Source: a virus. Taken from it: a stretch of 64,000 bases of DNA. The notes beneath the pieces were generated by a model. That model saw nothing but the letters and a program-made list of their open reading frames with translations, made no database searches and was not told the DNA's origin. Below, piece by piece: positions 24,097 through 62,194 of this stretch (position 1 is its first letter; each line of letters starts with the position of its first letter). The translations under genes and the position numbers were made by a program. The DNA lies in the IMG/VR virus record IMGVR_UViG_3300028573_000014, positions 15,954 to 79,953 of that record, one strand, 5' to 3'.

Positions 24097-24548
24097 GATT
24101 CGTCCTTTACTACATAAATAGTCCGCTGATCTTCCCAGACCACGCGGCAACTGAACGGACCTATAGTCATAAATCCACCGAACTTGTGGGTTTCAAACGA
24201 GTCTGCCAAAAGCTCTTTAGCAACCCCCACAATTTCTTTATTCCCCCACATATACTGATAAGTGATCATGTTGTTCGTCATGTCTTTCTCACGAACGACT
24301 GTAATAACGCCTGTATCTGTCGGTCTCGGATACGACCTTATCAGTTCATCGATCTTCTTATAACCAGCGTCGGATAAGCCGCGCAGGAATTTCTGCGTTC
24401 CGATGGATCTTGTCCATACATAGGGACTATCTAGCAATTCAGTATATTCGGCATCAGTGATGACCTGAACGAAATTATCATTCGGGTGTTTCCCAGCCCT
24501 CTCTAGCCAGGGCAGTATTCTGAGCAGGTCGAGATCACTTAGGGGCAT
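24093..24548 (-). CDS. Hypothetical protein
   Basis: Coupled ORF. Confidence 0.5.
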   Translation of the reverse strand: MPLSDLDLLRILPWLERAGKHPNDNFVQVITDAEYTELLDSPYVWTRSIGTQKFLRGLSDAGYKKIDELIRSYPRPTDTGVITVVREKDMTNNMITYQYMWGNKEIVGVAKELLADSFETHKFGGFMTIGPFSCRVVWEDQRTIYVVKDES

Positions 24549-29528: not shown

Positions 29529-29816
29529 TTATTCCCCTTTTCTCATTTTATCTGCCACGTCTTTTGAAGATGTGACCACGCGGGCTGTAGATCCACGCTG
29601 AATAAGCGCACCAATGGCAGCATCGAAAGCTGAAGCAAAAGAAGTGTGATGCTCAATATCCCGTCCAGCCTCCAGAATGTGCCAGAGGCCATCCTTGCCT
29701 TCCAGCATCACCAGCGCATGGGCGTGCAATCGTCTGTTGAGAATCTTTACCGCCTCGCGCATATGAGTGCCGTCGGCAAGCATTCCACGAATAATTTCTT
29801 CAGTTGATTCGTTCAT
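29529..29816 (-). CDS. Hypothetical protein
   Basis: Coupled ORF. Confidence 0.5.
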   Translation of the reverse strand: MNESTEEIIRGMLADGTHMREAVKILNRRLHAHALVMLEGKDGLWHILEAGRDIEHHTSFASAFDAAIGALIQRGSTARVVTSSKDVADKMRKGE

Positions 29817-30580
29817 TTTATTTCCTCAAATGCTTCGGCAGTCCAGGGGAGGACCACTTTGAAAAAGTTATCGTAAATCACCTGAGCATAGACGCGAATT
29901 TCATACTGGGCATCGCTGGCCATGCGCAAGCGCAGGAAGTTCATCAGATTGTGAGCATCGATCTTAATCACGCCCGTGTAGTAGACTGCAAATCCGGGCA
30001 GGAACAACCGTGCAATCTCCCGTGCCACGCCCTTCTTCAGCGCTGCCTCATACAACTCATACGAGTGCGCGTAGTGGGCAATAAGGGCTGCTGTGGTCTC
30101 ATTGCCCACAGCCTCGTCCAGTTCGCCTTCACTGGCCTGTTTGTTGTTCTTAGCCTGCTGCCGCCAGACATCCGGCACATAGAAGTCGTTTTCCTCAAAG
30201 GGGGTATAGCGGCCCGATTGCAGGTTAATATTAAAAGTCCGGTGTCGGACCAGTTGCCACCATGTTACCAGTGGGGCACGCAGCCTGAACTTGAACTCGA
30301 CCATCTCAAAGGGACTGGTGTGATGATTGCGCAGCAGGTAGAAGAGTAACTTCTTGTCGGACTCTGCGCCCTTGCTCTGTCCGAGGAAGGAAACGCGAGC
30401 TGCATTGACAATGGCGAGATCATTGCCCATGACAGATTGCAGTTCCACGAAGCCTTTGTCGAGCACAGGAATAGTATTGCCGATAGGAGCCTGCGCTTTG
30501 GGATGTCGTTCACGCAATTCTTCCCATAAATTGTTATCTATCAACTCGTCATCAGTTAATTTGTCGTTACCCTTTTGCAT
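29813..30580 (-). CDS. thyX: FAD-dependent thymidylate synthase
   Basis: AARVS, HTSPFE, RHRTFNINLQSGRY signature, ARLFLP, AQYEIR. Confidence 0.95.
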   Translation of the reverse strand: MQKGNDKLTDDELIDNNLWEELRERHPKAQAPIGNTIPVLDKGFVELQSVMGNDLAIVNAARVSFLGQSKGAESDKKLLFYLLRNHHTSPFEMVEFKFRLRAPLVTWWQLVRHRTFNINLQSGRYTPFEENDFYVPDVWRQQAKNNKQASEGELDEAVGNETTAALIAHYAHSYELYEAALKKGVAREIARLFLPGFAVYYTGVIKIDAHNLMNFLRLRMASDAQYEIRVYAQVIYDNFFKVVLPWTAEAFEEIK

Positions 30581-33074: not shown

Positions 33075-33284
33075 CTAGGGATGGACGGGTAAAGGTCTGG
33101 CAATGTTACCTCCCATTGCGCTGCGGATCAGTGCTTGCACTTCATCAATGGTCTCAGTGCAGCGAATCGAGTCGCCGCTAACGGTCTTTATCAGGGTATC
33201 TCCATCGTCACGATAAACGTACTGTATCTGTCCGACCAGAATCAACACAGGTCCAACATCCCTTATGCCAGTAACTCTAATCAT
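33075..33284 (-). CDS. FlbD/SwrD-like small protein
   Basis: MIRVT...I..V....DTLI...SG..I...ETIDEV pattern; ATGA-coupled start. Confidence 0.5.
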   Translation of the reverse strand: MIRVTGIRDVGPVLILVGQIQYVYRDDGDTLIKTVSGDSIRCTETIDEVQALIRSAMGGNIARPLPVHP

Positions 33285-33925
33285 CCCATCCACCTGAAGC
33301 CTTTCCGTATGAGTAGTTCTTTCATTTCCCGCTTGAAGGCCCATGCGCCCTGAAACTTCACCCGCTTGGAGAGCGTGTGGATCATTCTGGCGTGCCACAG
33401 GTCCAGATGGGATGGGTCTTCGTCATGATTGACCCACAGATCATGCCACGCACATGTAAACGGCTGCGTGTTCTGGACAGTCCACTCCAGTGCATCGGCC
33501 TCAATAATCCTCAACCGATCAGTCTGTGGCATATAAGGCTGGACCAGCTTAAGCACATCGGGCGAGTTCTCAATAACAGTAATATGCTCGACCTTCGGAT
33601 TGAGCAGCAGTCCCCTGACGACGCAGCCCAGACCCAGCCCTGTTACCAGCACATGCCCGTAGGCTTTCATGGCGAAGCCCAGATGGGTGCTGAGTTCAAA
33701 GGGTGTATCTTCCATGACCAGATCGCCAGGAGGGTTGTTGTAGAGCGTGGCATCAGTGATGCAGCGCAGATAAGTATAAGTTCCGGCGGGAAGGGTGATC
33801 ATCTTCCAGTTGCGGTAGGTCGTGTGATCCTTTTTGATACGGTACTTGCTAATATGCCACAGACCGGAGTATCCGGCAGGGATAGCCTTAGCGCTCATGG
33901 CAGCCAGATAATCTTTAGCGTTCAT
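33281..33925 (-). CDS. Spermidine-synthase-like SAM-dependent methyltransferase
   Basis: VMEDTPFE, GHVLVTGLGLG, VIENSPDV, ADA, WHDLW. Confidence 0.8.
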   Translation of the reverse strand: MNAKDYLAAMSAKAIPAGYSGLWHISKYRIKKDHTTYRNWKMITLPAGTYTYLRCITDATLYNNPPGDLVMEDTPFELSTHLGFAMKAYGHVLVTGLGLGCVVRGLLLNPKVEHITVIENSPDVLKLVQPYMPQTDRLRIIEADALEWTVQNTQPFTCAWHDLWVNHDEDPSHLDLWHARMIHTLSKRVKFQGAWAFKREMKELLIRKGFRWMG

Positions 33926-34167
33926 TCTATTTCCGAATCTGCCTGCGCGGCATCCATTGCGTCCTGTCGGGTCGGGAATCTGTTTTTCCCACCAGCAACG
34001 ATGAATCCCTTGTACGCATCGTACCGCACCCAGCACCATTTGCCGTCGCCGTTTTCTTGCCCAACCACGTAGGTGAGACCTTCTTTCACCTTTGCCTCCC
34101 ACGAAATAACAGGCTCTCGTTTATCCTGGGGGACGTGGCTAGTTTCTCGCCATTCCAGTGTTGTCAT
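33922..34167 (-). CDS. Hypothetical protein
   Basis: LEW...W.W...T..DA..AA module. Confidence 0.5.
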   Translation of the reverse strand: MTTLEWRETSHVPQDKREPVISWEAKVKEGLTYVVGQENGDGKWCWVRYDAYKGFIVAGGKNRFPTRQDAMDAAQADSEIE

Positions 34168-38760: not shown

Positions 38761-38861
38761 AAGGTCGGCAAATTATGCGATAGCTAGGCGCTGGATTGCG
38801 ATTGTGAACGATGGCACAAGCGCGGTTAAGTTCATTAACGAAGCATTGCCTAAAAATTGAT

Positions 38862-39188
38862 TTAAAATTGTTTAGTTCGTTCACTAAAGAATAGTTTCAT
38901 GTCTCTAAGCAAAACGTAGTATTTAGCTTGCAATCCATAGGATCGGTTAAGCATGTTGATTGCACTATCTGGAATAGGATAGATTGGTACACTATGCGAG
39001 ATCATAACGTACACATGAGGATTAGGTCGACGACCATAAATCAGGCGATAAGCCTTATTGATCGTCATAGCATCATGACAGTTTTGAGTCCACAATTTTT
39101 CTGCGAAGCATTTACCGCGCTTCGTGGTCCAGAATGCCGGGTCTATCCCTTCGCACCATAACGGTATTAAATCACTTAGTTCTATCAT
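38862..39188 (-). CDS. HTH-like protein, paralog of 24548..25066
   Basis: IDPAFWTTKRGKCFAEKLW...AMTINKAYRLIYG versus ISPWLWETKGGRKVAWAQW...ALTPSQAARLFWG; TG-C-TACAAT extended -10 at 39198-39206. Confidence 0.55.
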   Translation of the reverse strand: MIELSDLIPLWCEGIDPAFWTTKRGKCFAEKLWTQNCHDAMTINKAYRLIYGRRPNPHVYVMISHSVPIYPIPDSAINMLNRSYGLQAKYYVLLRDMKLFFSERTKQF

Positions 39189-39444
39189 AGTTAAGCGATT
39201 GTAGCACGTAGCAGGCGCAAGGCGCAACGATGCATCGTAACAGTACTGAATTACAGGGCCGCAATCGATAGCGAAGCATAGCACGAAGGATTGCGCAATC
39301 GATGCAAGGCGAAGCATAGGCCAGGTCGTAGCAGGCGCGATCATAGTCCAGTGTTATCGCCTGCTCAATTTGCTGGCAAGGTAGAACAGAATAGAACATA
39401 AACCTACGCTTTGAAAATTGGTGAAAATTGGTTGTCTAAACCTA

Positions 39445-39473
39445 TTGACAGTGTACTGCAATAAGAGTATAAT
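39445..39473 (+). promoter_or_regulatory. Early sigma70 promoter P1 with overlapping operator
   Basis: TTGACA-17-TATAAT. Confidence 0.9.
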
Positions 39474-39513
39474 TCTCTCATAAGACGCGAGCACACACGA
39501 AGGATTAAACAAC

Positions 39514-39735
39514 ATGTTTTCACTAAAAGCCACAATCGCCGAAAGAAACAACGAAACAATAGTGATGTTTTCCGACGAAGGTGCGAAGTTTCAGGAAGAT
39601 TGCTTAAACACTGTCGGGTTAGTCAAGTTCTCACCCGCTCACAAAATGATCGGTTCACTAGTAACGGCTATCAACAATAACCAGATTTCAGTAAGCGAAG
39701 CAACCAAAAAGTTTAACGCCGCATTAAGCAACTAA
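39514..39735 (+). CDS. Early hypothetical protein
   Basis: First ORF after P1 with SD. Confidence 0.6.
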   Translation: MFSLKATIAERNNETIVMFSDEGAKFQEDCLNTVGLVKFSPAHKMIGSLVTAINNNQISVSEATKKFNAALSN

Positions 39736-39765
39736 GTCAATCGACACAATAAGGGATAAGCTACC

Positions 39766-40233
39766 ATGATCACAAATTGCCCTAAGTGCGGCGGACTCGG
39801 TCACATTGCCTGCTATGGTCACATAGCGCAAGGTGCGTGCTTTAAATGTAATGGGACGGGCAAAATTAATGCACCGGTGGCACGCAAGGATCGCAAGGTG
39901 CAATCCCCTGAGCGCAAAGCAGAATTAGCGGCATTAAAAGCAGATAAGCTAATTATTGGTACAGTCGATGACGCGATCAAACGTGCCATTGATGCTATTG
40001 CAGATAAGCCATCGTATAAGGCAGAAATAAGCTTGCTTATCAATTGCTTCGTGCGTGAGGTAAGCATAGCAGGCTTGACACTCTACCAGGCAAGGATCGC
40101 AGATGAGAAGTTAAGCAAGGCGATCTACCGCTTGCCATCTAGCAGCGATCTATCCTGGTTGACTATCAACAAGCCTTACACGCTTAACGATGGCATTATA
40201 AAGCAGGCAATCCATAATCACATAGGACGGTAA
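39766..40233 (+). CDS. Early protein with CxxCxGxG Zn finger
   Basis: CPKCGGLG...CFKCNGTG. Confidence 0.65.
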   Translation: MITNCPKCGGLGHIACYGHIAQGACFKCNGTGKINAPVARKDRKVQSPERKAELAALKADKLIIGTVDDAIKRAIDAIADKPSYKAEISLLINCFVREVSIAGLTLYQARIADEKLSKAIYRLPSSSDLSWLTINKPYTLNDGIIKQAIHNHIGR

Positions 40234-40236
40234 AAA

Positions 40237-40431
40237 ATGATCGAACGAATAAGCATTGTACGCAAACTCATAGAACTAAACCAGAAACAACTTGAACACG
40301 ATCAATTGATTCTAGAGTCCTCGTCTTACAATAGCGCTCAATGGTTAGTTTATCGGCAAGCGGTAGAGTCAGATAAACGGACAATTGAGCGTTATGAGAA
40401 CGAATTAAAACAATTGGAGAATCAATCATGA
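40237..40431 (+). CDS. Early hypothetical protein
   Basis: Helical hairpin ORF with SD. Confidence 0.55.
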   Translation: MIERISIVRKLIELNQKQLEHDQLILESSSYNSAQWLVYRQAVESDKRTIERYENELKQLENQS

Positions 40432-40652
40432 TCGCATTAACCATAGTCTCACTTCGCACCGGTGATCTTGTATTGCAAGACACGTTTAACGATAGCTTCG
40501 TGTGGGAAATTATCGCCACATACACAGAATGCACCGATCTTCCCTACGATTGTACTAGCTTCGTAGCAGGCGCGTTTTATGTGGCCCTGGATGATATCGA
40601 TAACTGAGAATTTTCGTTATGTGTCTGTTATGCTAATTCAGTAAATTGGTTA

Positions 40653-40681
40653 TTGACAGTACACTGCAAAAAGCATATAAT
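40653..40681 (+). promoter_or_regulatory. Early sigma70 promoter P2 with overlapping operator
   Basis: TTGACA-17-TATAAT. Confidence 0.9.
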
Positions 40682-40719
40682 GGTATTCATAGACACGCGA
40701 GCACATGAGGGTAACGAAA

Positions 40720-40959
40720 ATGAACGGGTTTAACTTCACTTCACAGAATTGGCAAGTCGACGAACACGAAGTAACGCCTACATTCGATAATGATGTTTTT
40801 AGCGCCATCGCCGCCGGCCAGGCTTGTGCAATTGCCCGTAAAGATAAGAGCGGTATTGAGTTTTTCAAGAGCATTGCAAAGAAAGGCAACATCGCATCGT
40901 TAACCAGCAAGGAGCAATCCCTAATCCGTATCTGGTATATGCGCTCATTGGAGAGCTAA
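40720..40959 (+). CDS. Early hypothetical protein
   Basis: SD GAGGG before ATG 40720. Confidence 0.55.
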   Translation: MNGFNFTSQNWQVDEHEVTPTFDNDVFSAIAAGQACAIARKDKSGIEFFKSIAKKGNIASLTSKEQSLIRIWYMRSLES

Positions 40960-40965
40960 GTCAAC

Positions 40966-41184
40966 ATGAACACGGTAAACGATAAGCGCCTGCTCTTAAT
41001 CTCAGTACTGGAAGATCGCCGCACCAATGCCATTATGCGGGGAAACTTCAAAACCGCGAAAAACTTAACACGTTGGATCTGCTTCTTGCGTGGTCCTGCT
41101 ACCAGATACGATATCGCGGCCCTGTATACAGAATATCGATGCAATCATGAAACTATCGCGCCTGCTCAGTTAACTCTATTTTAA
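40966..41184 (+). CDS. Early protein ending in clamp-binding-like QLTLF
   Basis: C-terminal QLTLF*. Confidence 0.55.
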   Translation: MNTVNDKRLLLISVLEDRRTNAIMRGNFKTAKNLTRWICFLRGPATRYDIAALYTEYRCNHETIAPAQLTLF

Positions 41185-41303
41185 AAGGGGTGATCACCAT
41201 GAAACAAGCGAAGCATATGAAACGCGCCACGCGTAACAATCGGCAATTTGTCAAGGCTTATCTCAAGTCTAAGACTCGCAAGTTCTAAAAGGATATACCA
41301 ATC

Positions 41304-41603
41304 ATGATCAAGTCAATGTTTTCTATCGATGATGAACCGGGCGTTATCTATCCTGGTTATACAGATGAACTAACCGCTTACATGGGGTTTGAGGATCCTT
41401 CGTTTGAACTTGCGATAGTACTGGAAATTTTAAAGGATCGGAGCGTCGAATATACATTCGATAACGATACTTTCAGCATACCAGAATTCGCGGATTTTAC
41501 GCCAGAAAACGTATACAGCGGATTCGATATCGCCATCGATGGCGAAGTGAAGCACGTGTATAACGTGGGACAATGGTTGTTTATCTGGAATAGGGCGGTT
41601 TAG
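41304..41603 (+). CDS. Acidic early hypothetical protein
   Basis: FSIDD...YPGYT...P.F...Y.VG..W.W phage family pattern. Confidence 0.6.
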   Translation: MIKSMFSIDDEPGVIYPGYTDELTAYMGFEDPSFELAIVLEILKDRSVEYTFDNDTFSIPEFADFTPENVYSGFDIAIDGEVKHVYNVGQWLFIWNRAV

Positions 41604-41612
41604 TAACACATA

Positions 41613-41640
41613 GCGCCTGCTAATTGGAGTTAGCAGGCGC
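41613..41640. other. Perfect hairpin formed by two inverted AGCAGGCG motifs
   Basis: GCGCCTGCTAA-TTGGAG-TTAGCAGGCGC. Confidence 0.7.
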
Positions 41641-41677
41641 AATTGTGAGACTAAGCATATTACAGGGGATATCATCG

Positions 41678-42427
41678 ATGTTAACCAATGGTTGTAGAGT
41701 AGCAGGCATATACGATGGCAAGTCATTTACTGGCAACTTGTATGAGTTAAATCATATTAGCAGTATTGAGTTAGACAATGGGATCATAGGGTTTGACGGG
41801 CGATATACTGAGCGCTTGCATATGTACACTGATAACCATAAGGCAAGCCAGCAATTTTGGGAAATCCCAGAATCCCCGGTTAATAGTGAATATGCCATTG
41901 GTGATCTCTCCGAGATTGCACGCGAATCCCTTGCCAAACAATTTAAGCCTGTAAAGTTAAGTGAATATCGCGCTATGGTGCAAAATAGGTTAATGACCTA
42001 TAAGACGGTAAAGCAGGCAGTAACTTGTGAATATGGTCATAAGCATATGATTGATCGTCGTGTCCCGGTTGCGCCTGCTATCGATGAGAAGCTTCTCAAT
42101 ATTGAATTCTTTTTCTACTGTTTAGCAGAATACGCGCGTTATCTGGAGGAACGTGAGTATGTGGCACGTAACGAAACGTGGAATCGCCTGGCTCGCAAGT
42201 TGTCATTGTCGGCAATTGCCTATGATGGCACGTTTGAGGGACTAGATACAGAGACAATTAAGCATATACGTGCGGAATTGTCGAAGCAATACGACGATCT
42301 ATGCTTCGATTATCAGGTCAAAATCTATGGTGCGAAGTATATGCCGCGTCATATCCGATCTTGTGAGCTATGCTACAAAAACGATCTAGGCAAGCGTTAT
42401 AGTGCTTACCTCGAAGGGATTAAATAA
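41678..42427 (+). CDS. Early hypothetical protein
   Basis: SD GGGGA; long ORF. Confidence 0.6.
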   Translation: MLTNGCRVAGIYDGKSFTGNLYELNHISSIELDNGIIGFDGRYTERLHMYTDNHKASQQFWEIPESPVNSEYAIGDLSEIARESLAKQFKPVKLSEYRAMVQNRLMTYKTVKQAVTCEYGHKHMIDRRVPVAPAIDEKLLNIEFFFYCLAEYARYLEEREYVARNETWNRLARKLSLSAIAYDGTFEGLDTETIKHIRAELSKQYDDLCFDYQVKIYGAKYMPRHIRSCELCYKNDLGKRYSAYLEGIK

Positions 42428-42429
42428 CT

Positions 42430-42948
42430 ATGTGTAACGCGAAGCATGCCTATAAATCAGCATACCGTAAAGAGCGCCAGTACTTTAACAACCTGATAAA
42501 TCCCCTGGATTATCATGATCGCTATGTCGATACTCTACAGGAAAAACAGACTCGTGAGACCTATATGTTTTGGGACGGTATGCAGAATCCGTGGAGTAAT
42601 GATCGTTACTTCGATGCAATGATCGCCTGCTATGCATCGAAGTCAATCTATACGCTTAAAGTACGATCTATGATGCTATGTCAATCATGTGGTGCGGTAA
42701 GTGATGAGTTAGACCATGATACTTGTCCTCATTGCCTGCTTATGGCGAGTCAGGCACTACTTAACGCTGCCAATGATACTTATGAGGATATCGCCAAAAT
42801 ATGGATCAATACCTTCGTGTGGCGTGATGATAATTACTTCGAGATTCAGCGCTTATACGATGATGCAAGCCAGCACGTGCAAGCAATGATCAATCTACAG
42901 GATGAGTATCATGTGGCATATTACAATGCCACCGGTAAGGAATCCTAA
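42430..42948 (+). CDS. Early hypothetical protein with Zn ribbon
   Basis: CQSC...CPHC. Confidence 0.6.
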   Translation: MCNAKHAYKSAYRKERQYFNNLINPLDYHDRYVDTLQEKQTRETYMFWDGMQNPWSNDRYFDAMIACYASKSIYTLKVRSMMLCQSCGAVSDELDHDTCPHCLLMASQALLNAANDTYEDIAKIWINTFVWRDDNYFEIQRLYDDASQHVQAMINLQDEYHVAYYNATGKES

Positions 42949-42949
42949 C

Positions 42950-43183
42950 ATGATCCTGCTACTATGTGCAAAGAATCCACGCACGAAGCAGGAACGAAAC
43001 TACATTCTAAAAATGTGCTATAAGGCTGCCCGCGCGGTAAATGGCGATAAGACTGGGAATAATAATGGATCGAGAGTCTTAGATGGCAAGGTGATCATTG
43101 TAGACTTAGCTGGCAATGCCAGAATTGAAACACAGACAACATATACTCATCGCCCGCTCTTCACATGGATAGACCAGGACTAA
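42950..43183 (+). CDS. Early hypothetical protein
   Basis: SD TAAGGA. Confidence 0.5.
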   Translation: MILLLCAKNPRTKQERNYILKMCYKAARAVNGDKTGNNNGSRVLDGKVIIVDLAGNARIETQTTYTHRPLFTWIDQD

Positions 43184-43189
43184 AACAAC

Positions 43190-43786
43190 ATGAAAACTAA
43201 ACGACAAGTTGCGCCAATGCTCACAAAAAACCAGTTGATTGATCTACTCATTACAGGAATCGCGCATGAACTTGTGAGCGATTATAAAAGCAACTATCCC
43301 TCGATTCAAACGCCTGCTAAGAATTACAAGACAATTGAGAAGTTAGTAAAAACAGGCGTTTTTAAATGGTCTCGCATATACCAATCGGGTGATCATGGTG
43401 CTGGCGTATACTTTACTGAGCAGGCGCTAAAACGATATGAGAAAATGATCCGAGATCGCGCTTATGGGATCGTGCTCCGAGAGTCAATCTTTGATCTTAA
43501 ATACGCTCCGAGATTGCGTGAACAGTTTGCAAACGAATCATGGTTAAAGTACTGCAATACCGAGCCAACTATCTGGCGCTGGTGGAATCACGGTAAGGGA
43601 AGTGCTTTTGAGTTTTTAGAGATAACGTTTACTAATGGGCTGGATCAACGTGTCGAGATTAACTGCAATTATGACACCGATTGTATGGTCTCTTATGAGG
43701 AACGTTTACAACATGCTGATCTGCAATACTCACGCGCTGAAATTGCACGTCTACCAATGGTAGAGCTATATCCCTTCTCACTATAG
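43190..43786 (+). CDS. Early hypothetical protein (wHTH-like N-terminus)
   Basis: LTKNQ...TIEKLVKTG...YFTEQAL. Confidence 0.55.
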   Translation: MKTKRQVAPMLTKNQLIDLLITGIAHELVSDYKSNYPSIQTPAKNYKTIEKLVKTGVFKWSRIYQSGDHGAGVYFTEQALKRYEKMIRDRAYGIVLRESIFDLKYAPRLREQFANESWLKYCNTEPTIWRWWNHGKGSAFEFLEITFTNGLDQRVEINCNYDTDCMVSYEERLQHADLQYSRAEIARLPMVELYPFSL

Positions 43787-43798
43787 AGGATTCTAACT

Positions 43799-44209
43799 AT
43801 GAACACTAAACAAGCCTATGTCGAAGCCTACCGCGTATACCGTCAATTTGATGGATCTTGCACCAATTTACAACTATATAGAACGTCTATACTTTGCAAG
43901 TATGGCACTATAGGCGCGAAGGCAATTGAATCGAGGGATAACCGATCCTATGCTTCGCCAATGCCAACAAAAAAGCATGCTTATCCTGCTATTTATCGGG
44001 CAACCTATCGGTTAGGGCAAATGTACGAACGTTCGATCTTGCTGGCAAGGTTTACACGCAATCCAGGAGACTACGACAAGGCGATAGAAGCGGAAAAGAT
44101 CTTAGATGGCCTGGTGCGAAGCAATCCAGAACACTGGTTATATACTGATTTTGTCAATGGGCGCAATTCCATCCGCGCGGCCCGACAATTGGAGTTGATC
44201 AATTTATAA
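43799..44209 (+). CDS. Early hypothetical protein
   Basis: SD GAGGA. Confidence 0.55.
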   Translation: MNTKQAYVEAYRVYRQFDGSCTNLQLYRTSILCKYGTIGAKAIESRDNRSYASPMPTKKHAYPAIYRATYRLGQMYERSILLARFTRNPGDYDKAIEAEKILDGLVRSNPEHWLYTDFVNGRNSIRAARQLELINL

Positions 44210-44220
44210 CACTTTCGTTA

Positions 44221-44249
44221 TTGACAGTACACTGTAAACCTGCTACAAT
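44221..44249 (+). promoter_or_regulatory. Early sigma70 promoter P3 with overlapping operator
   Basis: TTGACA-17-TACAAT (TG extended). Confidence 0.85.
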
Positions 44250-44279
44250 TCGATACATAAGCAAATGAGGGACTAAACC

Positions 44280-45899
44280 ATGACAGTAACAAACAACATG
44301 CGCCAGAATTGGCAACAATTGAGCGTAAAAAGCAATAATCCTGATTTCAAGCCTTTCTATGTGCCAATGGCGACAAGCTACCAGGGACGGCGCGCCAATT
44401 ATGATTATGCAAGGGTTGAGTATACTTTCGAGTACTGGGCAAAGTCATTGCAAGGCGAAGCGTCGAATGATCCTTACCTGAGCAATCATGATACAGCATA
44501 CTTCGCCGACGAATACCGGCAGGCTTATGAAAAGTTTTTAGATAAGTTTGCCAGCATCGAAGCAGACAAGCGCCAAAAGGATGAGCACGCGGTAAGGATC
44601 GCGCTATATCATGCCAACGTGGCAAACGAAACAACATTCGACATTGCCAGCTATGCCAACGATATGATCTCGGATTATGAGCATAGCGCCGGGTCAATTG
44701 TGTCAAGTGTCCTCCAGGAGAATTTAGAGCAGGCGCTTAAACTGCTAGAAAAAGGATACGGTAAAACGCCAGATCAACATATGGTGCAGATTAAATCTGG
44801 CAAGTATGAATTGCAATTAACTGCTACCAATGGTTCTATGTGGTTACAAACTGGCGTTACTTATGCGCCAGGGCTGCCGGTTAATATCTTCCTTCCCGCG
44901 AAGCGCTTGCAAGACCTGGTTAAGGCATTGCCAGCATTTAGAATCGATATGAATACCACGACGCGCGAAGTTGACAGTATTAAGCACTTATACGCGCCTG
45001 CTTTGCACCTTGTGTCTGGTTGCGCTAGTGCCAATGTGATCGGCACTAGAACGCCTAAAAAGGTGCGGGAAATGCCAGCGCTACCAATTGGTGACTATAT
45101 CCTGATTAATGATGTTATTGGCTTTCGTAGCAAGTTGGAGCAGGCGCTTGCAATAACGGCAAAAAATGATCGTCGCCCTATACTCGAATGTGTAAACCTC
45201 AAGATTGAGAATAACACGCTATCGATTGTCGCCGCGGATGGCTGGCGCTTGTCGGTAGATAAGATCGAAGTTGAATCGGGCGATATCGCTGGCAATTGGA
45301 ATTTACACAATACTGATATCCGCGCTTTACTGGCAATACTGCCAGCCAAAAACGCTCAATCTACATTGACTCTAAGCACGGCGGGCGAGTGTATGTTTTT
45401 TGTGTATGATCGCGTGATTGCCTGCTTTACCGCTGTTAAGGGAAAGTTTCCAGATTATGATCAGATTATTCCTCGTCAACCTGCTATGAACGTAGCGTTA
45501 AACCTTAACGATACTATCCGCCAGATAAAGAGTCTCAAACCCTTCTATAAGGAAAGCGCTAATACTGTCAAAATTGAGATTGTCCAGGGGACAAGCGGCA
45601 ATATATATCATGATCCTGCTACCGTAACACTGAGCGCCACAAGCCAGGAAAAAGGATCTAGAACGGTAGAGCTTAGAGCAGGCGAGTCAACCGGTAATAT
45701 CAAGGCTTCGGTCAATGGTGCTTACTTGCTGGAGATACTCGAAAAAATGGCGAAGGCGCTACCCAAAACAAAAAGCACCATTGAGCCTTCCTTCCTGCTC
45801 AGTTTGAGCGATCAAGCACCCTGGAAGATCGACTCGTGGGACGCGCAAGGCTGCCCGGGTACGACTTATGTTATTATGCCAATGAGTGAACCACGCTAG
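44280..45899 (+). CDS. dnaN: DNA polymerase III beta sliding clamp homologue with N-terminal extension
   Basis: RRPILECV, VAADGWRL, GKFPDYDQIIP, VNGAYLLEIL, YVIMPM; ~135 aa extra N-terminal domain. Confidence 0.85.
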   Translation: MTVTNNMRQNWQQLSVKSNNPDFKPFYVPMATSYQGRRANYDYARVEYTFEYWAKSLQGEASNDPYLSNHDTAYFADEYRQAYEKFLDKFASIEADKRQKDEHAVRIALYHANVANETTFDIASYANDMISDYEHSAGSIVSSVLQENLEQALKLLEKGYGKTPDQHMVQIKSGKYELQLTATNGSMWLQTGVTYAPGLPVNIFLPAKRLQDLVKALPAFRIDMNTTTREVDSIKHLYAPALHLVSGCASANVIGTRTPKKVREMPALPIGDYILINDVIGFRSKLEQALAITAKNDRRPILECVNLKIENNTLSIVAADGWRLSVDKIEVESGDIAGNWNLHNTDIRALLAILPAKNAQSTLTLSTAGECMFFVYDRVIACFTAVKGKFPDYDQIIPRQPAMNVALNLNDTIRQIKSLKPFYKESANTVKIEIVQGTSGNIYHDPATVTLSATSQEKGSRTVELRAGESTGNIKASVNGAYLLEILEKMAKALPKTKSTIEPSFLLSLSDQAPWKIDSWDAQGCPGTTYVIMPMSEPR

Positions 45900-45920
45900 A
45901 AAGTTGCTATACTTTGGTGA

Positions 45921-45949
45921 TTGACAGATAATTGTCAATCACCTATACT
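45921..45949 (+). promoter_or_regulatory. Early sigma70 promoter P4 inside a perfect 11-bp inverted repeat
   Basis: TTGACA-17-TATACT; GGTGATTGACA-GATAAT-TGTCAATCACC. Confidence 0.85.
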
Positions 45950-45985
45950 AAACCTACACGACGCGAACAATTGGAGAAAACAACT

Positions 45986-46648
45986 ATGTATAAATCAAAC
46001 GACACAACCAGCAAAGTTAAGACCCTCGCCGACGAACTTTACAGCGCCTTCCAGAACGACAAGCGCAACGATGGGACAGAGTTTGTACATTTGAAGGATG
46101 GATCGCCAGAATGGATGACTCAGGTTATCCACACGGCACACGGTGACAAGTTCCCCGATGATACCGTTTACGAATTTGTATATCGCGCGGCGATGGCGCT
46201 GGCAGACGCTGGCGATTATTTACAGGATGCCATCTCGGAGATTGAGCCAGATATCTATACTCATGATTTAACCGCGTGGCTTCATGCACGGGTGGATCAC
46301 ATTGAGTATATTGATCAGGCTATCTCGGAATTCGGGCAATTTGACAGCGGTTTCAACCTGCTCTCAGCGGCCCAGAAAATGCAGATCGATGAGATTAGTT
46401 ACAGTGTACTGTCAAGCCTGGAAAGCCTCGCAGATGACGCAATAGAGGAAGAATACCAGGCAGACGAAGAAGAAGAATCACACGGCTTTGACTGGGATAA
46501 TTATCCGCCGATTCAGTCTCGATTTTACTTCGATCAATTGTGGAAGGGACGCGATTATTTGCTGGCGGATGTTCACAATAACGATCTAGTCCTGGCTGAT
46601 CTCGATTATTGGTTCTGGCTTGATACCAATACCTACAGCGCCGAATAA
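45986..46648 (+). CDS. Ocr-like acidic DNA-mimic anti-restriction protein
   Basis: Very acidic; LQDAISEIEPDIYTHDLTAWL motif and DDAIEEEYQADEEEE tail resemble T7 Ocr homologues; early promoter. Confidence 0.6.
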   Translation: MYKSNDTTSKVKTLADELYSAFQNDKRNDGTEFVHLKDGSPEWMTQVIHTAHGDKFPDDTVYEFVYRAAMALADAGDYLQDAISEIEPDIYTHDLTAWLHARVDHIEYIDQAISEFGQFDSGFNLLSAAQKMQIDEISYSVLSSLESLADDAIEEEYQADEEEESHGFDWDNYPPIQSRFYFDQLWKGRDYLLADVHNNDLVLADLDYWFWLDTNTYSAE

Positions 46649-46722
46649 GCCAGCGTAAACCGCGCGGACCTGGCAACAGGTCCGCTATACCTCATCAAAG
46701 CATAAGAGAAGGCTAAAACACT

Positions 46723-47364
46723 ATGAAAACAGACAATATACACGGCTTCACAGTAGGACCAGCAAAGATCGGCACAAACAAGATCGCTATCACACGAATC
46801 TCAACCGGTAGGGTTGTTCGCTCCTTCAATGCTAGCGATGCTTATACCAATTGCCAGCAGGCGCTTGAATGGCTCAAGGAAAACAAAAAAGGCGCTCCGA
46901 TCTATGTCTCCGACTCTGAGCCGAAATTCTCGCAGTATGTGATCGATCATCCTGGCAATGGATACTATGATAAAGCGACCAGCAAGCGCATTAACGCGGC
47001 AGCCCAAAAGATCGAGGCGATCAAGTATCTGCAAACCATCGTTAAACCAGGCCAAACCGTCTCGGTCTCGCTGGTTAGCGTGGCACGCTCCGGCCTGAGC
47101 AGGCGAGTCAAGTTGTTCTATACCGTGAAGGGTCAAAACCTGAATATTACAGCCTGCGCGGCGACTATTCTGGGCTGGCATTATGACGGGGACTCGGTGC
47201 GTGTCGATGGCTGCGGCACAGATGCGGCGTTCCAGGTTGTGTATCACCTTTCCAGCGCTCTATACCCGAAAGGCGCAAAAGTGCCCGCCAGCTATCGCGG
47301 GAAGAAGGATGCAAGCGGTTTTGTTCGTGATGGCGGTTATGTTCTGCTGAATCGCTGGCTATAA
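46723..47364 (+). CDS. Early hypothetical protein
   Basis: SVARSGLSRR...RVDGCGTDAAFQVVYHLS phage family pattern. Confidence 0.6.
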   Translation: MKTDNIHGFTVGPAKIGTNKIAITRISTGRVVRSFNASDAYTNCQQALEWLKENKKGAPIYVSDSEPKFSQYVIDHPGNGYYDKATSKRINAAAQKIEAIKYLQTIVKPGQTVSVSLVSVARSGLSRRVKLFYTVKGQNLNITACAATILGWHYDGDSVRVDGCGTDAAFQVVYHLSSALYPKGAKVPASYRGKKDASGFVRDGGYVLLNRWL

Positions 47365-47424
47365 ACTGACAGATCGCACGTAAGCACGCTATACCCGAAA
47401 AGCAATAGAGAAAGACAGCGCAAC

Positions 47425-48306
47425 ATGAAAACACAATTGACTCCACGGACAAGTATCAAGACTATTCAGCAAATGATCGCAGATGATTTCCAGGTCTTTA
47501 TCGACAATGATCTGGCTGAAAACATCCGCAAGCACGCAGGCCGCGATCTGATCGTGTGGACTCCTGATCATTTAAAGTGTGTAGCCAATGATCTGCAACT
47601 TGAGATTATGACTAACAGCATTGTGTGGTTTGGCACTGGCTATACCAATAAGGAATGGAACATTGAAGCGCCAAACCAGATAGATGATTGGAATACTGTT
47701 ATCAACCATCTCACAACGCCAGAGTTTGATCCCTTCGTGGATGAGTGGCACGCCGATCAACTTCGCGGTGCATCGTTTGAGTTTGTGCGCACCTTCCTGG
47801 ATCAGTCTAATAATGATTATTGGTACTGGGAAGACTACAACGTATACCCGTTTGAGCATCAGGCGCAGCCCGTTGTCAAGTTGACCGCGTATCGGCTCGG
47901 CCTGCTGCGAGATTGTAACCGCGAAAATGGGATCGATGCGCAGACATTGACGCGCTTTAAACCACAGGCAAAAAGCGCTGTAAACTGGCTCATCCGACAG
48001 GGACTCATGATCAAGCATAAGAATGGCGACATGTTTGTAGCCCTTCTGGGTGAACAATACCTTATCCTGTACGCCACCAACGCGCAGGCAGCCAACGATG
48101 ATGAGATCATGGAAGTTGGCGAAGCTCGCCATATACTCGCAAAAGCTATCATTAACCAGACCGAAAGCGATACCGATGGAGATAGCTTCGGGGACTGGGC
48201 TTTCGGTGGCGGCATCTGGGACTCCTGCCAGACGGTTGATCAGGCATGGGATCAGGTTGTCCTTTTTGCTCAGCAGTGGGACGATCTGAGCCAGCAGGAT
48301 TATTAA
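47425..48306 (+). CDS. Hypothetical protein with wHTH-like segment
   Basis: Long ORF; KLTAYRL...LIRQGL. Confidence 0.6.
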   Translation: MKTQLTPRTSIKTIQQMIADDFQVFIDNDLAENIRKHAGRDLIVWTPDHLKCVANDLQLEIMTNSIVWFGTGYTNKEWNIEAPNQIDDWNTVINHLTTPEFDPFVDEWHADQLRGASFEFVRTFLDQSNNDYWYWEDYNVYPFEHQAQPVVKLTAYRLGLLRDCNRENGIDAQTLTRFKPQAKSAVNWLIRQGLMIKHKNGDMFVALLGEQYLILYATNAQAANDDEIMEVGEARHILAKAIINQTESDTDGDSFGDWAFGGGIWDSCQTVDQAWDQVVLFAQQWDDLSQQDY

Positions 48307-48307
48307 A

Positions 48308-48685
48308 ATGAAGCCATCCGAGATCATCCAGATGTTAAAGCAGGTCCGCAGCGAAGGCGATACATTTATCATCGTCTCAAAGAGTGGCTATACCCAGGTG
48401 GGATTAAAGCCACAGATAGGGCGTACCATTAACATCACCGGTGCGGTGCGCTTCGCCTTCGATTTGCCTTATCAGGGTAAGTGCATCCACGCCACAGGCG
48501 AAGCGGTGCAGGCGCTCTTGGATGGTCTCGAACCGAAGCGGCTACCAGTGGCAGCCAGGCCAGCGCCAAAGAAGGCTGCGCCAGTCGTGGAGGCTATACC
48601 CGATTTTGATACGATGAGCAGTGAAGAAGTGATCGCATGGATCGAGGCTCATCCCGATGCAATATCCGCTGCAAAGGTTATATAA
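48308..48685 (+). CDS. Hypothetical protein
   Basis: Coupled ORF. Confidence 0.55.
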   Translation: MKPSEIIQMLKQVRSEGDTFIIVSKSGYTQVGLKPQIGRTINITGAVRFAFDLPYQGKCIHATGEAVQALLDGLEPKRLPVAARPAPKKAAPVVEAIPDFDTMSSEEVIAWIEAHPDAISAAKVI

Positions 48686-49253: not shown

Positions 49254-49496
49254 GTGGACGAAATGCTAACCGTGAAGGAAGTCTCAGAATTGTCGGGTAT
49301 CCACAGCGATACCATCTCGAAATATATCAGCGGCGCACGGGAGCCTCGTCTCAAGGCTGAACTGGGACACGGTGATGATGGTCGTGTGCGCAATTACTTC
49401 AAGCGCGAAGTCGTAGAAGCCTGGGTCAATGAACTGAAAAGACGGAAGTTGACCGAGAAGCGCGGACGCAAAAACAAAGTGATGCCCACCTACTAA
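49254..49496 (+). CDS. Excisionase/MerR-like HTH DNA-binding protein
   Basis: MLTVKEVSELSGIHSDTISKYI...FKREVVEAW. Confidence 0.75.
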   Translation: MDEMLTVKEVSELSGIHSDTISKYISGAREPRLKAELGHGDDGRVRNYFKREVVEAWVNELKRRKLTEKRGRKNKVMPTY

Positions 49497-50917: not shown

Positions 50918-50951
50918 AAAGAGAGTGGAGTCGTGTCCGCTCTCTTTTTTT
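50918..50951 (+). terminator. Intrinsic terminator
   Basis: GAGAGTGGA/TCCGCTCTC stem followed by T7. Confidence 0.7.
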
Positions 50952-55808: not shown

Positions 55809-56168
55809 CTAAGACTCCTTCATCTGGAATAGAGGCAAGTCATCGATCCGCGTTTCCTTCACAATATGATGATCTTCAAATGGCTGGCGCAGCCGTTCAC
55901 GACATATAGCCACATATTCGGGGTTAAGTTCGCTCCCGATGTAGGATCGACCATTAGCCCTTGCCACAAGTCCGCTGGTCCCACTTCCCATGAAGGGATC
56001 AAGCACAATGCCAGGGCGCACACCTGCATTGCAATCGCAGTTGATGCTCTGGTCGGGCAGTCTGCGCAGCATGGTCAATGCGTCCATGCAGTGAATAACG
56101 TCCACCTGTAATGAGGATGGCACAAAAGGCTGCGCAGGCCAGTCCTGATCTACGATGTCGATGGTCAT
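55809..56168 (-). pseudogene. Internally deleted N4/N6 DNA methyltransferase remnant
   Basis: N-terminal IHCMDAL..LPDQSINC joined directly to C-terminal VLDPFMGSGT...IGSELNPEY; catalytic SPPY/DPPY and TRD absent. Confidence 0.7.
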
Positions 56169-57598
56169 GATTGCACCTCAAATAGTGATGGCTGCTTAAT
56201 CTCAGGCTCGGTAACTGCCAGACGCATGGACCGCATGGGATCGTCATAGTAATCCAGCCGCGCCCGTGCAATGCTGGCATATTCGTGGCTGAGTTCTACG
56301 CCATAGATAGTTTCCCAGCCTGCCAGCGATGCCCCAATAATTTCGCTTCCACTTCCACAAAATGGGATAAAGAGTCTGCGGGGTCCGAATTCCGCAGGCG
56401 GCAAAAGCAGTTTCGCAAGCCAGATCGCCAAATTAATGGGCTTGATCGTGGGGTGCGTGTTCAGTCGCTGTGTCTCACCCCGCTGATAAGCATTATCGAT
56501 AGCCTTCTTGCGACCATCATTCACCTGCTGATAATCAAAGTGGTCAAGTCCCCGGTTGCGCTCATCCTTGCCAGCTTTTGGCATATACAGGAAAGGGCTG
56601 GCAACTTCCAACTGCTCGGCCACTTCCTGCGACCAGTCAGCAGTATGGAAGAATCGGGCAGCCGATCCATCATCACCGTAACCTTCATAGTTGCGCTGGC
56701 GATTGAACCGACCTGAGTAGATATTCGCCATCGGTTCGCTCTGGGCATCCACGATATTGCCGCCAGCAGATCGTTCGCCTGCCTGGTCGCCCAACATCTG
56801 GACAGGGCACATAGGTACACACTGATCATCCGTGCAATCTGGACTATGGATCAGTGCCAGATTGGAAGGCCAGCGACCACCGCGATCCATCTCTTGTGGC
56901 TCAAACTCTATGATCCCCTGACTATGGATAAAATTTCCGCCTCTGATGTCGTTTTTCCAGGGCGTGCTTCTATTCCATGCTGGACCTTCGATGCGACCAC
57001 CATCAATGTTGATCGTACCGGCACCGGACCCTGTAATGCAATCTCGCGTCCGACCAATATATGGCTTCTGGAAGACGCAGATAGGTTCAAGGGAAGGCTT
57101 CATAGCTTGTCCGCCATAACGATGCCCCTCAAAGCGGGGATCGCCTTTGACGCGAGTCGCTTTGGGGAAGCCCTGACCCTGTATCCAGACGATCATAGGA
57201 TGCAGGATAAAACCTGCATCCTCAATGGCGCAGGCCATTCGTGCGAAGCCGCGAGTACTAGCAAAGGCCATTCCAAATGCACCAGGCAACAGAACCTTAC
57301 TGAAAGTTGCCCATGTCTCAGGTCGGAATACCAGGTCTCCACCATCCCAATCCTTTCCCATGAATCCTTTTGAGGCTCTGGCGAAAGCACCGTCTTTACC
57401 AAACTTGGCAGGAGCGGCATCTGCGCTGCCAAATCGATCAGTGATACTGGTCAAATGATAGGGAGGATCACAGAACATGCTGTGAAAGAGTTCGCCCCGA
57501 TAATCGTGCGTGAAATCCAGTGCATCCCCCTGGATAACCCGATGCTTCGTTCTGGCTACCATTGGTAGCGCACTGCTCTCTGCGGTCAGGAGTTTCAT
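56165..57598 (-). CDS. Beta-class N4/N6 DNA methyltransferase
   Basis: CDPPY, GFPK, HPTIKP, PFCGSGS, GVEL. Confidence 0.9.
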   Translation of the reverse strand: MKLLTAESSALPMVARTKHRVIQGDALDFTHDYRGELFHSMFCDPPYHLTSITDRFGSADAAPAKFGKDGAFARASKGFMGKDWDGGDLVFRPETWATFSKVLLPGAFGMAFASTRGFARMACAIEDAGFILHPMIVWIQGQGFPKATRVKGDPRFEGHRYGGQAMKPSLEPICVFQKPYIGRTRDCITGSGAGTINIDGGRIEGPAWNRSTPWKNDIRGGNFIHSQGIIEFEPQEMDRGGRWPSNLALIHSPDCTDDQCVPMCPVQMLGDQAGERSAGGNIVDAQSEPMANIYSGRFNRQRNYEGYGDDGSAARFFHTADWSQEVAEQLEVASPFLYMPKAGKDERNRGLDHFDYQQVNDGRKKAIDNAYQRGETQRLNTHPTIKPINLAIWLAKLLLPPAEFGPRRLFIPFCGSGSEIIGASLAGWETIYGVELSHEYASIARARLDYYDDPMRSMRLAVTEPEIKQPSLFEVQS

Positions 57599-60846: not shown

Positions 60847-62194
60847 AGTTTGCTTCTTCAGCTTCGCGTTTGCGGAGTTCGCCAGGAGTCATCATGCGCT
60901 TGGGATCTCTGGGGTCGGGAATGAGATTTGATTTTCTGTCGGGTACGCGCTCAACTTTCCAGGTGGTAATGTTCTTAGCAACGTAATCGAAAGATACAGT
61001 TTGTCCCTTCCAATAATCTTCCCCCTTCTTTCCCTTCACGTAGACCATCATCTCAGCAGGGGTAATGCCTTCATGGTGCAGGACCAATGCCGCATTGATC
61101 ACGCCGCGCATGATCTGGATTTGCCAATTCACCACTGGAATTGCTGGGTGGGCTTCAAGCCACGCTTTGAACAGTAAGCCTGCGCTGCGCATCTCATCCG
61201 AAGTGATACCAGCCTGAAACAATTCCTTCGAGAATCGTGAGAACGCGCCAACGCTAAATGTCTTGGGGACATATTTCTCCAGCGCTAGCCTCCACGCTTC
61301 GATAGGACGCATGTGATCCTGGGTTCGGTCCATCGCCTTTTCGAGACAGATGGGGCACGGCTGCTGTGGATTGGCCTCGGACTGCATACCGCCATAGGAT
61401 GGCAATGGTCGGATGCCGCAGAATGTCACAGTCGGCTGGTTGGCCTCGCGCACCAGATGGGCGCGCTCGCCATCCAGCGGATAAATCCAGCGCGTCTTTT
61501 CAGGCGCAGGCGGAAACTCCACCAGGGGGGTCGCCGCAACTGGGGGGTTCTTAGATTCCAATTCTCCAGTAAGGTCAGGAACGATCACTGGAATATCTGG
61601 AACGATCACTTCTGGAATGTTCGGAATTTCCGAAGACTTCACATCCGGGGTTGGAACAACTCCGAAAGAATCTTCTTCTATTGTTGAATCATTCTTGTTA
61701 TTGATTCTTGTTATATTATTCTTGTTTGGGTAAACCTGGTTTAGTACCCCTACTAAACCAGGTTTAGTACCCTCCTCAACCCCATTTACCCCCCCTACTA
61801 AACCAGGTTTAGTACGTAAACCAGGTTTAGTACCCTCGGATCGTCTGTTTATCTCAGAAAGGGTAAAGGTATAGTTGTCCTGAACCACCTTTCCAGCCTT
61901 TGTTGTTTTGTAATTCGGTGACGCAACAATGAGTTTTGCTTCAGAGAGTTCATTTAACCCTTTTCGGACAGTCGGCATTGATACTTTAAGCTGCTTGGCA
62001 ATAGTCTTGATAGACGGATGGGACCTGCCCGTTTTAGACCTTGAATAGTAGCAAAGCAGCATATAGATCGAGAATGCATAGATGCTCAGATCGGGCAGAT
62101 AAACTTCAACGATTTCTCTGTCAGCCCAAAAGTGTCCAGGGTGGCGTTCAGTTCTGGCTTTCATGGGCTGACCATCTTGTATGATAGTCAACAT
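60812..62194 (-). CDS. Replication initiator (HTH_36, lambda O-like)
   Basis: IYMLLC...PSIKTIAKQLKVS..TVRKGLNEL; contains iterons; precedes DnaB. Confidence 0.8.
   Translation of the reverse strand: MLTIIQDGQPMKARTERHPGHFWADREIVEVYLPDLSIYAFSIYMLLCYYSRSKTGRSHPSIKTIAKQLKVSMPTVRKGLNELSEAKLIVASPNYKTTKAGKVVQDNYTFTLSEINRRSEGTKPGLRTKPGLVGGVNGVEEGTKPGLVGVLNQVYPNKNNITRINNKNDSTIEEDSFGVVPTPDVKSSEIPNIPEVIVPDIPVIVPDLTGELESKNPPVAATPLVEFPPAPEKTRWIYPLDGERAHLVREANQPTVTFCGIRPLPSYGGMQSEANPQQPCPICLEKAMDRTQDHMRPIEAWRLALEKYVPKTFSVGAFSRFSKELFQAGITSDEMRSAGLLFKAWLEAHPAIPVVNWQIQIMRGVINAALVLHHEGITPAEMMVYVKGKKGEDYWKGQTVSFDYVAKNITTWKVERVPDRKSNLIPDPRDPKRMMTPGELRKREAEEANYEAKYGRKFVG
61670..61833. repeat. Replication origin: four TAAACCWGGTTTAGTAC iterons plus adjacent AT-rich tract
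   Basis: Copies at 61731, 61754, 61799, 61817; TTCTTGTT-rich tract 61670-61730. Confidence 0.8.

Follow-up and report, generated by a model that had tools for sequence, protein, structure and literature searches.

The window analysed here is a stretch of 64,000 nucleotides of a virus (IMG/VR record IMGVR_UViG_3300028573_000014, positions 15,954 to 79,953 of a genome of 79,953 bp), and all coordinates below refer to it. Its genes are all encoded on the minus strand apart from one rightward block between 39.5 and 50.9 kb, which begins at a divergence point. This block, referred to as the early operon, has four near-consensus sigma-70 promoters with a common dyad over the -35 box. The element in question is an array of a single octamer, AGCAGGCG, together with its variant AGCAGGCA, that fills only the first 8 kb of the operon and ends 4 kb before the operon does. 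In extent the array equals a low-GC (guanine plus cytosine) block at 38.5-47.0 kb, where the GC content is 0.42-0.47 compared to 0.51 elsewhere, i.e., on average 45% versus 51%.

All 18 positions listed in a preliminary description of this DNA carry an exact AGCAGGCG, ten on the plus and eight on the minus strand. The entire window contains 22 copies and the genome 24, that is, four more in the window beyond the array and two in the 16 kb preceding it. That only a few copies lie outside the region had been noticed before (7089, 7868 and 49661), however a fourth one in the window, 27356 on the minus strand, had been overlooked. Between 39210 and 47105 the density is 2.28 copies per kb versus 0.083 per kb outside, a 27-fold difference (Fisher p 6e-14), which excludes a uniform spread over the genome. 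By chance about 0.25 copies had been expected in the region, and its first-order Markov model gives a similar number, 0.29. In an unbiased scan of all 7- to 9-mers over the whole genome, no other word comes close to AGCAGGCG in spatial clustering.

The heptamer AGCAGGC, of which several had been seen in the same ~8 kb, is present there 25 times, and the 9-mer AGCAGGCGC occurs 13 times in the region versus once in the remaining 71 kb. There is about one site per 330 bp, or one per 440 bp if only AGCAGGCG is considered, and the gaps between the sites look irregular, ranging from 18 to about 1,300 bp. A second word mentioned earlier, CGAAGCA, does recur, with 13 copies in the region and 19 in the rest; however, its enrichment is mild and biased in orientation, 11 plus to 3 minus.

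The site itself is an asymmetric 10-mer, AGCAGGC-R-(C/A)-(T/G/A), whose core AGCAGGC does not vary. At position 8, 18 sites have G and six have A; position 9 is restricted to C or A (p 0.0005) and position 10 to T, G or A (p 0.002). C is never found at position 10 because GGCGCC is banned genome-wide, and it is weakly depleted at the two 5' flanking positions. Variants of the core with one mismatch are not enriched, with one in the region. This sharp definition agrees with the earlier suggestion that the word is recognised in the manner of a protein site. Beyond positions -2 to +10 the flanks of the sites are unrelated, and self-BLAST reveals no repeats in the region. Thus, the array is not a repeat element, and a dispersed repeat or mobile element could be rejected as there is no similarity past the word.

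The sites do not sort by orientation along the region, as the best positional split is not significant (permutation p 0.39); a polarity switch at an origin is rejected on the same grounds. The lack of polarity fits recognition of duplex DNA and excludes both RNA signals and polar translocase signals, neither of which should be present in both orientations at 10:8. Two pairs of copies are inverted. One of them, 39330/39358, lies in a probably non-coding stretch just upstream of promoter P1 (Table 1), while the other, 41614/41632, forms an intergenic 12-bp hairpin (dG -33.6 kcal/mol, z -8.3) with no U tract. Judged by sequence, both inverted pairs, at non-coding places, look like dimer-type operators.

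Several other candidates were rejected. Complementarity longer than the octamer is found in the local pair 41614/41632 only, and long-range RNA pairing was discarded because it ends at the octamer in the one distant pair that was compared by hand (43311/43419). A promoter element or MotA-box was discarded as the flanks, inspected by eye, contain no -10 element at a fixed spacing. Neither a compact iteron cluster nor origin iterons fit, since the sites are dispersed over 7.9 kb and the initiator-like gene is distant, at 60812-62194.

Selection could act on the proteins or on the DNA. As described earlier, the copies lie in unrelated genes and differing frames: they are found in all three frames and both orientations and encode EQAL, APA, AGA, RLL, SRR and others. 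According to the gene calls made in this analysis, 19 of the 24 sites (AGCAGGCG plus AGCAGGCA) are within coding sequence. Dinucleotide shuffles of the whole window contain a mean of 2.5 copies of AGCAGGCG and a maximum of seven. When synonymous codons are shuffled in 15 early genes, with proteins and codon pool kept, the mean is 1.07 and the maximum four, whereas 14 copies are observed; shuffling the codon order of the early genes leaves a mean of 0.32. Region-fitted Markov models of order 4 to 6 do absorb the enrichment, while those of lower order do not. This absorption is circular, because models trained on the region learn the word. Apart from these models, the enrichment survives the Markov and codon-shuffle checks.

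The same conclusion is reached from what we call permissive positions, where the amino-acid sequence lets AGCAGGCG be written by synonymous choice. In the early genes the word is present at 13 of 22 permissive positions, and five of the other nine have AGCAGGCA. Using an automatic gene set, it is present at 11/19 positions in the early genes versus 6/112 in all other genes. The early genes also contain more permissive positions for their length (3.0 per kb versus 1.8 elsewhere), therefore even the proteins lean towards the word. The copies of AGCAGGCG in the early region are kept by selection on the DNA, not on the protein. This is what the preliminary description had proposed, and both the permissive positions (13/22 versus 6/112) and the synonymous shuffle (1.07 versus 14) bear it out.

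It could be argued that the array is a by-product of history or composition with no present function, i.e., that an imported low-GC block, or a constraint on codons, dipeptides or restriction sites, has left it behind. The array does coincide with a compositionally distinct block, the missing C at position 10 is accounted for by the ban on GGCGCC, and the weaker words ATCTCGGA and ATTGCCAGC cluster in the same place. However, a GC-rich word in an AT-rich block is not what composition would give, and 58% of the permissive positions are used. Further, the flanks of the copies are unrelated, relatives keep and gain sites, one via a non-synonymous change, and no sampled bacterial genome is near this density. 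As the word also survives the synonymous and codon-order shuffles, this view is largely refuted, and we consider it very improbable.

The relatives that could be reached are all very close. A metagenome scan found only two near-identical contigs of about 2.3-2.4 kb. The relative L001 (2.4 kb, 94-95% identical) keeps five of the five sites that it covers and has one extra, created by a non-synonymous A/G difference at 43352. In another relative's contig the AGCAGGCA at 41701 has become AGCAGGCG. A diverged variant (run X15, place 39293) has a loose-end consensus that ends in CATAGCAG, and its junction with the following window sequence, made by hand, gives an extra AGCAGGCGC. None of the window sites is lost in the relatives seen. 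The divergence is little, yet these comparisons are suggestive of both retention and gain of sites.

In one relative, L002 (177-2224), positions 45988-47389 are swapped for a 2-kb module with 51% GC and no AGCAGGCG. The array can thus be interrupted, and it goes with the low-GC DNA that is resident there. The module consists of one open reading frame of 685 amino acids, in place of an acidic Ocr-like gene and a gene for a protein of 213 amino acids. More generally, the early block is found in small contigs in several assemblies, and the same runs have contigs of 39-92 kb. Such fragmented assembly fits a high mosaicism of the early block. The sites and the other features of the region are collected in Table 1.

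Table 1. The AGCAGGCG/AGCAGGCA array, its individual sites and other features of the early region (window coordinates).
Feature	Position	Strand	Remarks
Whole array	39210..47105	both	18 AGCAGGCG + 6 AGCAGGCA
AGCAGGCG(C)	39210..39217	+	probably non-coding stretch upstream of P1
AGCAGGCG(C)	39330..39337	+	inverted pair with 39358
AGCAGGCG(A)	39358..39365	-	80 bp upstream of P1 -35 box
AGCAGGCA-AT variant	39807..39814	-	
AGCAGGCA-AT variant	40202..40209	+	
AGCAGGCG(C)	40565..40572	+	frame 2, VAGA; 81 bp upstream of P2 -35 box
AGCAGGCG(C)	40987..40994	-	encodes RLL
AGCAGGCG(C)	41159..41166	-	encodes APA
AGCAGGCG(C)	41614..41621	-	left arm of the intergenic 12-bp hairpin
AGCAGGCG(C)	41632..41639	+	right arm of the same hairpin
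AGCAGGCA variant	41701..41708	+	G at 41708 in a relative's contig, giving AGCAGGCG
AGCAGGCA variant	42012..42019	+	
AGCAGGCG(C)	42072..42079	-	encodes APA
AGCAGGCG(A)	42624..42631	-	encodes IACY; present in L001
AGCAGGCA-AT variant	42733..42740	-	present in L001
AGCAGGCG(T)	43311..43318	-	encodes TPA; present in L001
AACAGGCG	43351..43358	+	AGCAGGCG in L001 (non-synonymous A/G); site gained or lost
AGCAGGCG(C)	43419..43426	+	encodes EQAL; present in L001
AGCAGGCG(C)	44728..44735	+	clamp gene, EQAL; present in L001
AGCAGGCG(C)	44995..45002	-	clamp gene, APA
AGCAGGCG(C)	45139..45146	+	clamp gene, EQAL
AGCAGGCA-AT variant	45419..45426	-	clamp gene
AGCAGGCG(A), GAGCAGGCGAGTCAA	45677..45684	+	clamp gene
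AGCAGGCG(C)	46856..46863	+	encodes QQAL
AGCAGGCG(A), GAGCAGGCGAGTCAA	47098..47105	+	encodes SRR; last site of the array
Leftward promoter	38503		
Early promoter P1	39445..39473	+	TTGACA-17-TATAAT, dyad over -35 box
Early promoter P2	40653..40681	+	TTGACA-17-TATAAT
Early promoter P3	44221..44249	+	TTGACA-17-TACAAT
Early promoter P4	45921..45949	+	TTGACA-17-TATACT
Beta-clamp homologue	44280..45899	+	N-terminal extension; inside the array, 4 sites + 1 variant
HTH_17 protein (excisionase/MerR-type)	49254..49496	+	80 amino acids, basic; only recognisable DNA binder of the rightward block
Intrinsic terminator	50918..50947	+	sole strong one of the rightward block

Wider searches gave no further arrays. 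Among isolated phages a megablast of the region found no match, and neither did protein-guided scans of IMG/VR with the clamp and the large terminase (TerL). In a word-indexed protein collection the clamp has no homologue but itself; eight contigs hold it. IMG/VR was also scanned with a 26-bp island common to the variant contigs (0 matches), with the promoter dyad (16 matches, all unrelated and due to chance) and with inverted 9-mer pairs. The last scan gave at least 119 matches, consisting of high-GC in-frame EQA codons, terminator hairpins and tandem repeats, with no arrays among them. Among 401 Pseudomonadota and 91 Acidobacteriota, a sample that includes the unpublished genomes G386, G427 and G452 (none of which carries an individual claim), no genome is outstanding in its density of the word. 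Homologues of the phage aminotransferase, examined for a hint of the host, are spread across many phyla. In the literature searched AGCAGGCG is not described as a motif, and the only two occurrences that a full-text search gave are incidental, in unrelated papers.

Other words also recur in the early block. All seven copies of the octamer ATCTCGGA in the genome are within 41909-48324, four on the minus and three on the plus strand; synonymous shuffling predicts 0.41 where six are observed, which is borderline after correction for the octamers tested. The word (A)TTGCCAGC(A) has 7-8 copies in the early block (39372-46858) on both strands, with a synonymous-shuffle mean of 0.74, and GCGAAGCA(T) has eight, seven of them on the plus strand. 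The words TTGCCAGC and GCGAAGCA have AGCA in common with AGCAGGCG. In addition, islands of 32-36 bp in the early block (39382-39413, 44115-44150, 46444-46477 and 48286-48318) recur in otherwise unrelated metagenome contigs, and one of these begins one base before a GCGAAGCA word. The islands may be regulatory elements or recombination joints common to related phages.

Between the leftward promoter and P1, positions 38860-39445 are a mosaic of short repeats, with GCGAAGCATAG, GCAATCGAT and GTAGCAGGCGC present twice each and a palindrome, CGATGCATCG. An open reading frame of 160 amino acids at 38862-39344 is probably not a gene, since relatives have 1-bp indels at 39319 and 39424. This stretch could be an origin or control region. 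Close to the other end of the array, 46723-47364 codes for the basic early protein of 213 amino acids. Its C-terminal domain has homologues in Ralstonia, Achromobacter, Sphingobium and Gordonia phages and also inside the terminal repeats of phiCbK-like Caulobacter phages. Elsewhere the contig codes for a portal protein, the large terminase, a fused capsid polyprotein, a DnaB-type helicase, the initiator-like HTH (helix-turn-helix) protein at 60812-62194 and several methyltransferases.

An exact octamer whose core variants are not enriched could be the recognition word of a host helicase-nuclease of the RecBCD/AddAB type, i.e., a Chi-like word. Copies in either orientation would then serve enzymes arriving from both sides, and a double-strand end in or near the early block would quickly become RecA-loading and recombining and so escape degradation. 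The genes required first would thereby be shielded, and mosaic early modules would be exchanged more readily; in metagenome assemblies no other part is as mosaic or as fragmented as the early block. Selection appears to depend on the dose of sites, which apparently are still being gained. Among ~60 proteins of the window, most of them unannotatable, PHROGs/Pfam detected neither a recombinase nor an inhibitor of RecBCD. The octamer GCAGGCGC matches the validated Pseudomonas Chi, GCTGGCGC, at seven of eight positions (bioRxiv 10.1101/266460; PMC12315714). By our own rough estimate, such a match to Chi has a chance of about once in a hundred, and the phage comes from rhizosphere samples: all sequencing runs holding the region are rhizosphere metagenomes, with no RNA run among them.

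There is precedent for phages that carry many Chi sites in regional clusters. Chi is oriented 20:3 in LLS and 32:0 in MD8 (Zheng et al. 2025, PMC12315714). P1 contains 50 Chi, 31 on the top strand and 19 on the other, in regionally dense clusters and densely near the packaging ends (Subramaniam & Smith, bioRxiv 10.1101/2021.07.08.451572). Like these arrays (lambdoid LLS, Pseudomonas MD8 and P1), the one described here is built from an exact octamer that greatly exceeds its chance frequency, is embedded in coding sequence and is concentrated in one region, with more copies apparently being better. It is also several times denser, with one copy per 440 bp compared to a whole-genome average of one per 1.9 kb in LLS and P1. 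However, unlike Chi in LLS and MD8 it has no orientation bias or switch, no link to a packaging end was seen in the contig, and the word is not a known Chi. The preliminary description had taken the non-polarity to speak against Chi. While the non-polarity holds (10:8, p 0.39), this argument was too strong and is weakened by P1, where copies are found on both strands.

Other observations speak more directly against a Chi-like word. The octamer GCAGGCGC does not fit a site whose 5' A is invariant and whose 3' C is optional; 18 of 18 GCAGGCG in the region are preceded by A. The exact Pseudomonas Chi GCTGGCGC occurs once in the region, and the word agrees with the E. coli Chi at five of eight positions. 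No genome stands out among the Pseudomonadota and Acidobacteriota sampled. Nor is the region placed at a DNA end. The small terminase (TerS) is weakly Sf6-like and TerL is nearest to the Thermus P23-45 group, with ~30% identity to that group and to an acidobacterial phage; both are encoded at 10.8-12.6 kb, 27 kb from the array. Terminases of these types presumably imply headful packaging with a pac site near 12 kb and no fixed end near 39 kb. There is no terminal repeat in the 79,953-bp contig, which is probably incomplete since other assemblies have longer contigs of 87-96 kb, and no doubled depth at the early block is seen in contig depths. Thus, the earlier proposal that the DNA of the array is injected first finds no support, and the terminase type is mildly against it. 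Considering both sides, a Chi-like role appears possible but rather doubtful; it is the strongest alternative to the reading favoured below.

The word might instead be the target of a modifying or nicking enzyme of the host or of the phage, which encodes, for example, an N6/N4 methyltransferase containing a large insert (56165-57598). In that case the two strands of the early block would carry marks or nicks that serve regulation or self-marking. An exact 7-bp core followed by a purine (AGCAGGCR) is in the style of asymmetric type IIG/III sites, several methyltransferase-like proteins are encoded by the phage, and sites in both orientations would mark both strands. However, such targets are as a rule neutral or selected against, so that a 27-fold enrichment in a single region is not expected of them. 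Nicking at 41614/41632, where two opposed sites are separated by 18 bp, would produce double-strand breaks, and the extreme removal of restriction sites suggests that modification offers no broad protection. We therefore find an enzyme target unlikely.

The removal of restriction sites is striking in itself. Eleven hexamer palindromes, with one-strand expectations of 5 to 28, have zero copies genome-wide: CTGCAG, GGCGCC, AGGCCT, TTCGAA, CAGCTG, GTGCAC, CTCGAG, TCCGGA, CGTACG, GACGTC and CGGCCG. CGATCG has one copy versus about 35 expected, several more are below 0.2 of expectation, and three non-palindromic hexamers at zero complete the degenerate sites GRCGYC, CYCGRG and CGRYCG. The DNA of the phage is therefore probably not modified globally, and the phage escapes many type II enzymes through loss of their sites. 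A thymidylate-synthase homologue is clustered with a sugar aminotransferase, a glycosyltransferase and a methyltransferase (29813-30580, 15129-16256, 22747-24150 and 33281-34102). This set may represent a pathway for base modification or for sugars, although the loss of so many restriction sites speaks against full modification of the DNA by it.

Repeated phage sites that are read by one DNA-binding protein of the phage offer a further comparison. The stoperators of cluster A mycobacteriophages (the sites of L5 gp71) are 13 bp long and are found in short intergenic gaps of both genome arms, pointing one way with respect to transcription. Both the stoperators and the operators of P1 C1 are sites of one such protein and can block transcription within operons. 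The array resembles stoperators and the C1 operators, which are likewise dispersed and asymmetric, in that a single asymmetric site is repeated many times over kilobases. Unlike stoperators, the sites are mostly in genes (19/24), run in both directions although the early genes are all on the plus strand, and are contained within 8 kb. Among the annotated proteins, neither a repressor nor a lysogeny module was recognised.

In phage P4 the iteron word TGTTCACC in ori and crr is also an exact octamer, present in both orientations and read by one phage protein. P4 iterons, however, form compact clusters of a few hundred bp at the origin, whereas the sites described here are scattered along 8 kb of coding sequence. 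DNA uptake sequences (DUS), uptake signal sequences (USS) and cyanobacterial HIP1 share with the array that they are orientation-free exact words in all frames, sometimes as inverted pairs after genes. They are genome-wide in cells, while the array belongs to one phage operon and no sampled bacterium has a comparable density. Similarly, the unexplained phage octamers CCCGGATG, CAGGACTC and TGTGGGCA are genome-wide, whereas AGCAGGCG is confined to one operon. By analogy the array would work most like the dispersed-site phage systems, i.e., Chi arrays, stoperators and P1 C1 operators. As it lacks features that define each of them, it is a member of none of these families.

We tentatively favour the explanation that the array is read by a sequence-specific DNA-binding protein, which would act on the early operon as a whole and independently of orientation. 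An array of protein sites best accounts for a sharp and asymmetric footprint of ~10 bp that is free of direction and recurs every ~330 bp in one transcription unit. The extent of the array also matches the low-GC block served by four promoters with one common dyad operator, which we count in favour. AGCAGGCG would then be the core of a ~10-bp asymmetric site read by a protein that binds double-stranded DNA, and the predicted reader would bind AGCAGGCGCT specifically. With about 24 sites over the first 8 kb, it would occupy the whole early block and not one operator. The sites are carried by the only rightward operon, which the host polymerase is predicted to transcribe; the direction of a site would not matter for binding, and a larger number of sites seems to be advantageous.

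What the binding does can be suggested in two ways. The sites could be roadblocks within genes that block or insulate early transcription after the early phase, or the protein could cover or organise the AT-rich early DNA. We infer that the reader may be a phage protein from the same operon, for example the HTH_17 protein, whose gene is close to the distal end of the operon. An atlas search for look-alikes of two early proteins was uninformative on the reader. In the most specific form of this proposal, an 'intragenic site carpet', a phage protein (possibly HTH_17) on two dozen sites within genes would switch off, insulate or shield the early block as a unit. Such an arrangement would differ from promoter operators, from polar stoperators and from Chi. 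It should be seen as speculative, and we are doubtful of it in this exact form.

Several points weigh against the array being read by a DNA-binding protein. For most early proteins neither a fold nor a family could be recognised, and the reader is only a candidate. It is unusual for regulatory sites to lie within genes, as 19 of 24 do here. So exact a core is more typical of enzymes, such as restriction and methylation domains or RecBCD with Chi, than of transcription factors. Continuous coverage is not essential, since the 2-kb module of a near-identical relative lacks any copy.

The combination of a sharp site, use of more than half of the permissive positions, restriction to one transcription unit and non-polarity is found in none of the known classes. 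Exact words that are selected inside phage genes mean that something reads the DNA itself. Chi arrays and stoperators have each revealed how phages handle a host enzyme or control a whole operon. The reader of this array, if found, would represent either a new type of early-gene control or protection in phages, or the Chi of an uncultured soil host. With about two dozen recodable sites and one candidate binder, the array gives a testable handle on an early region that is otherwise unannotatable.

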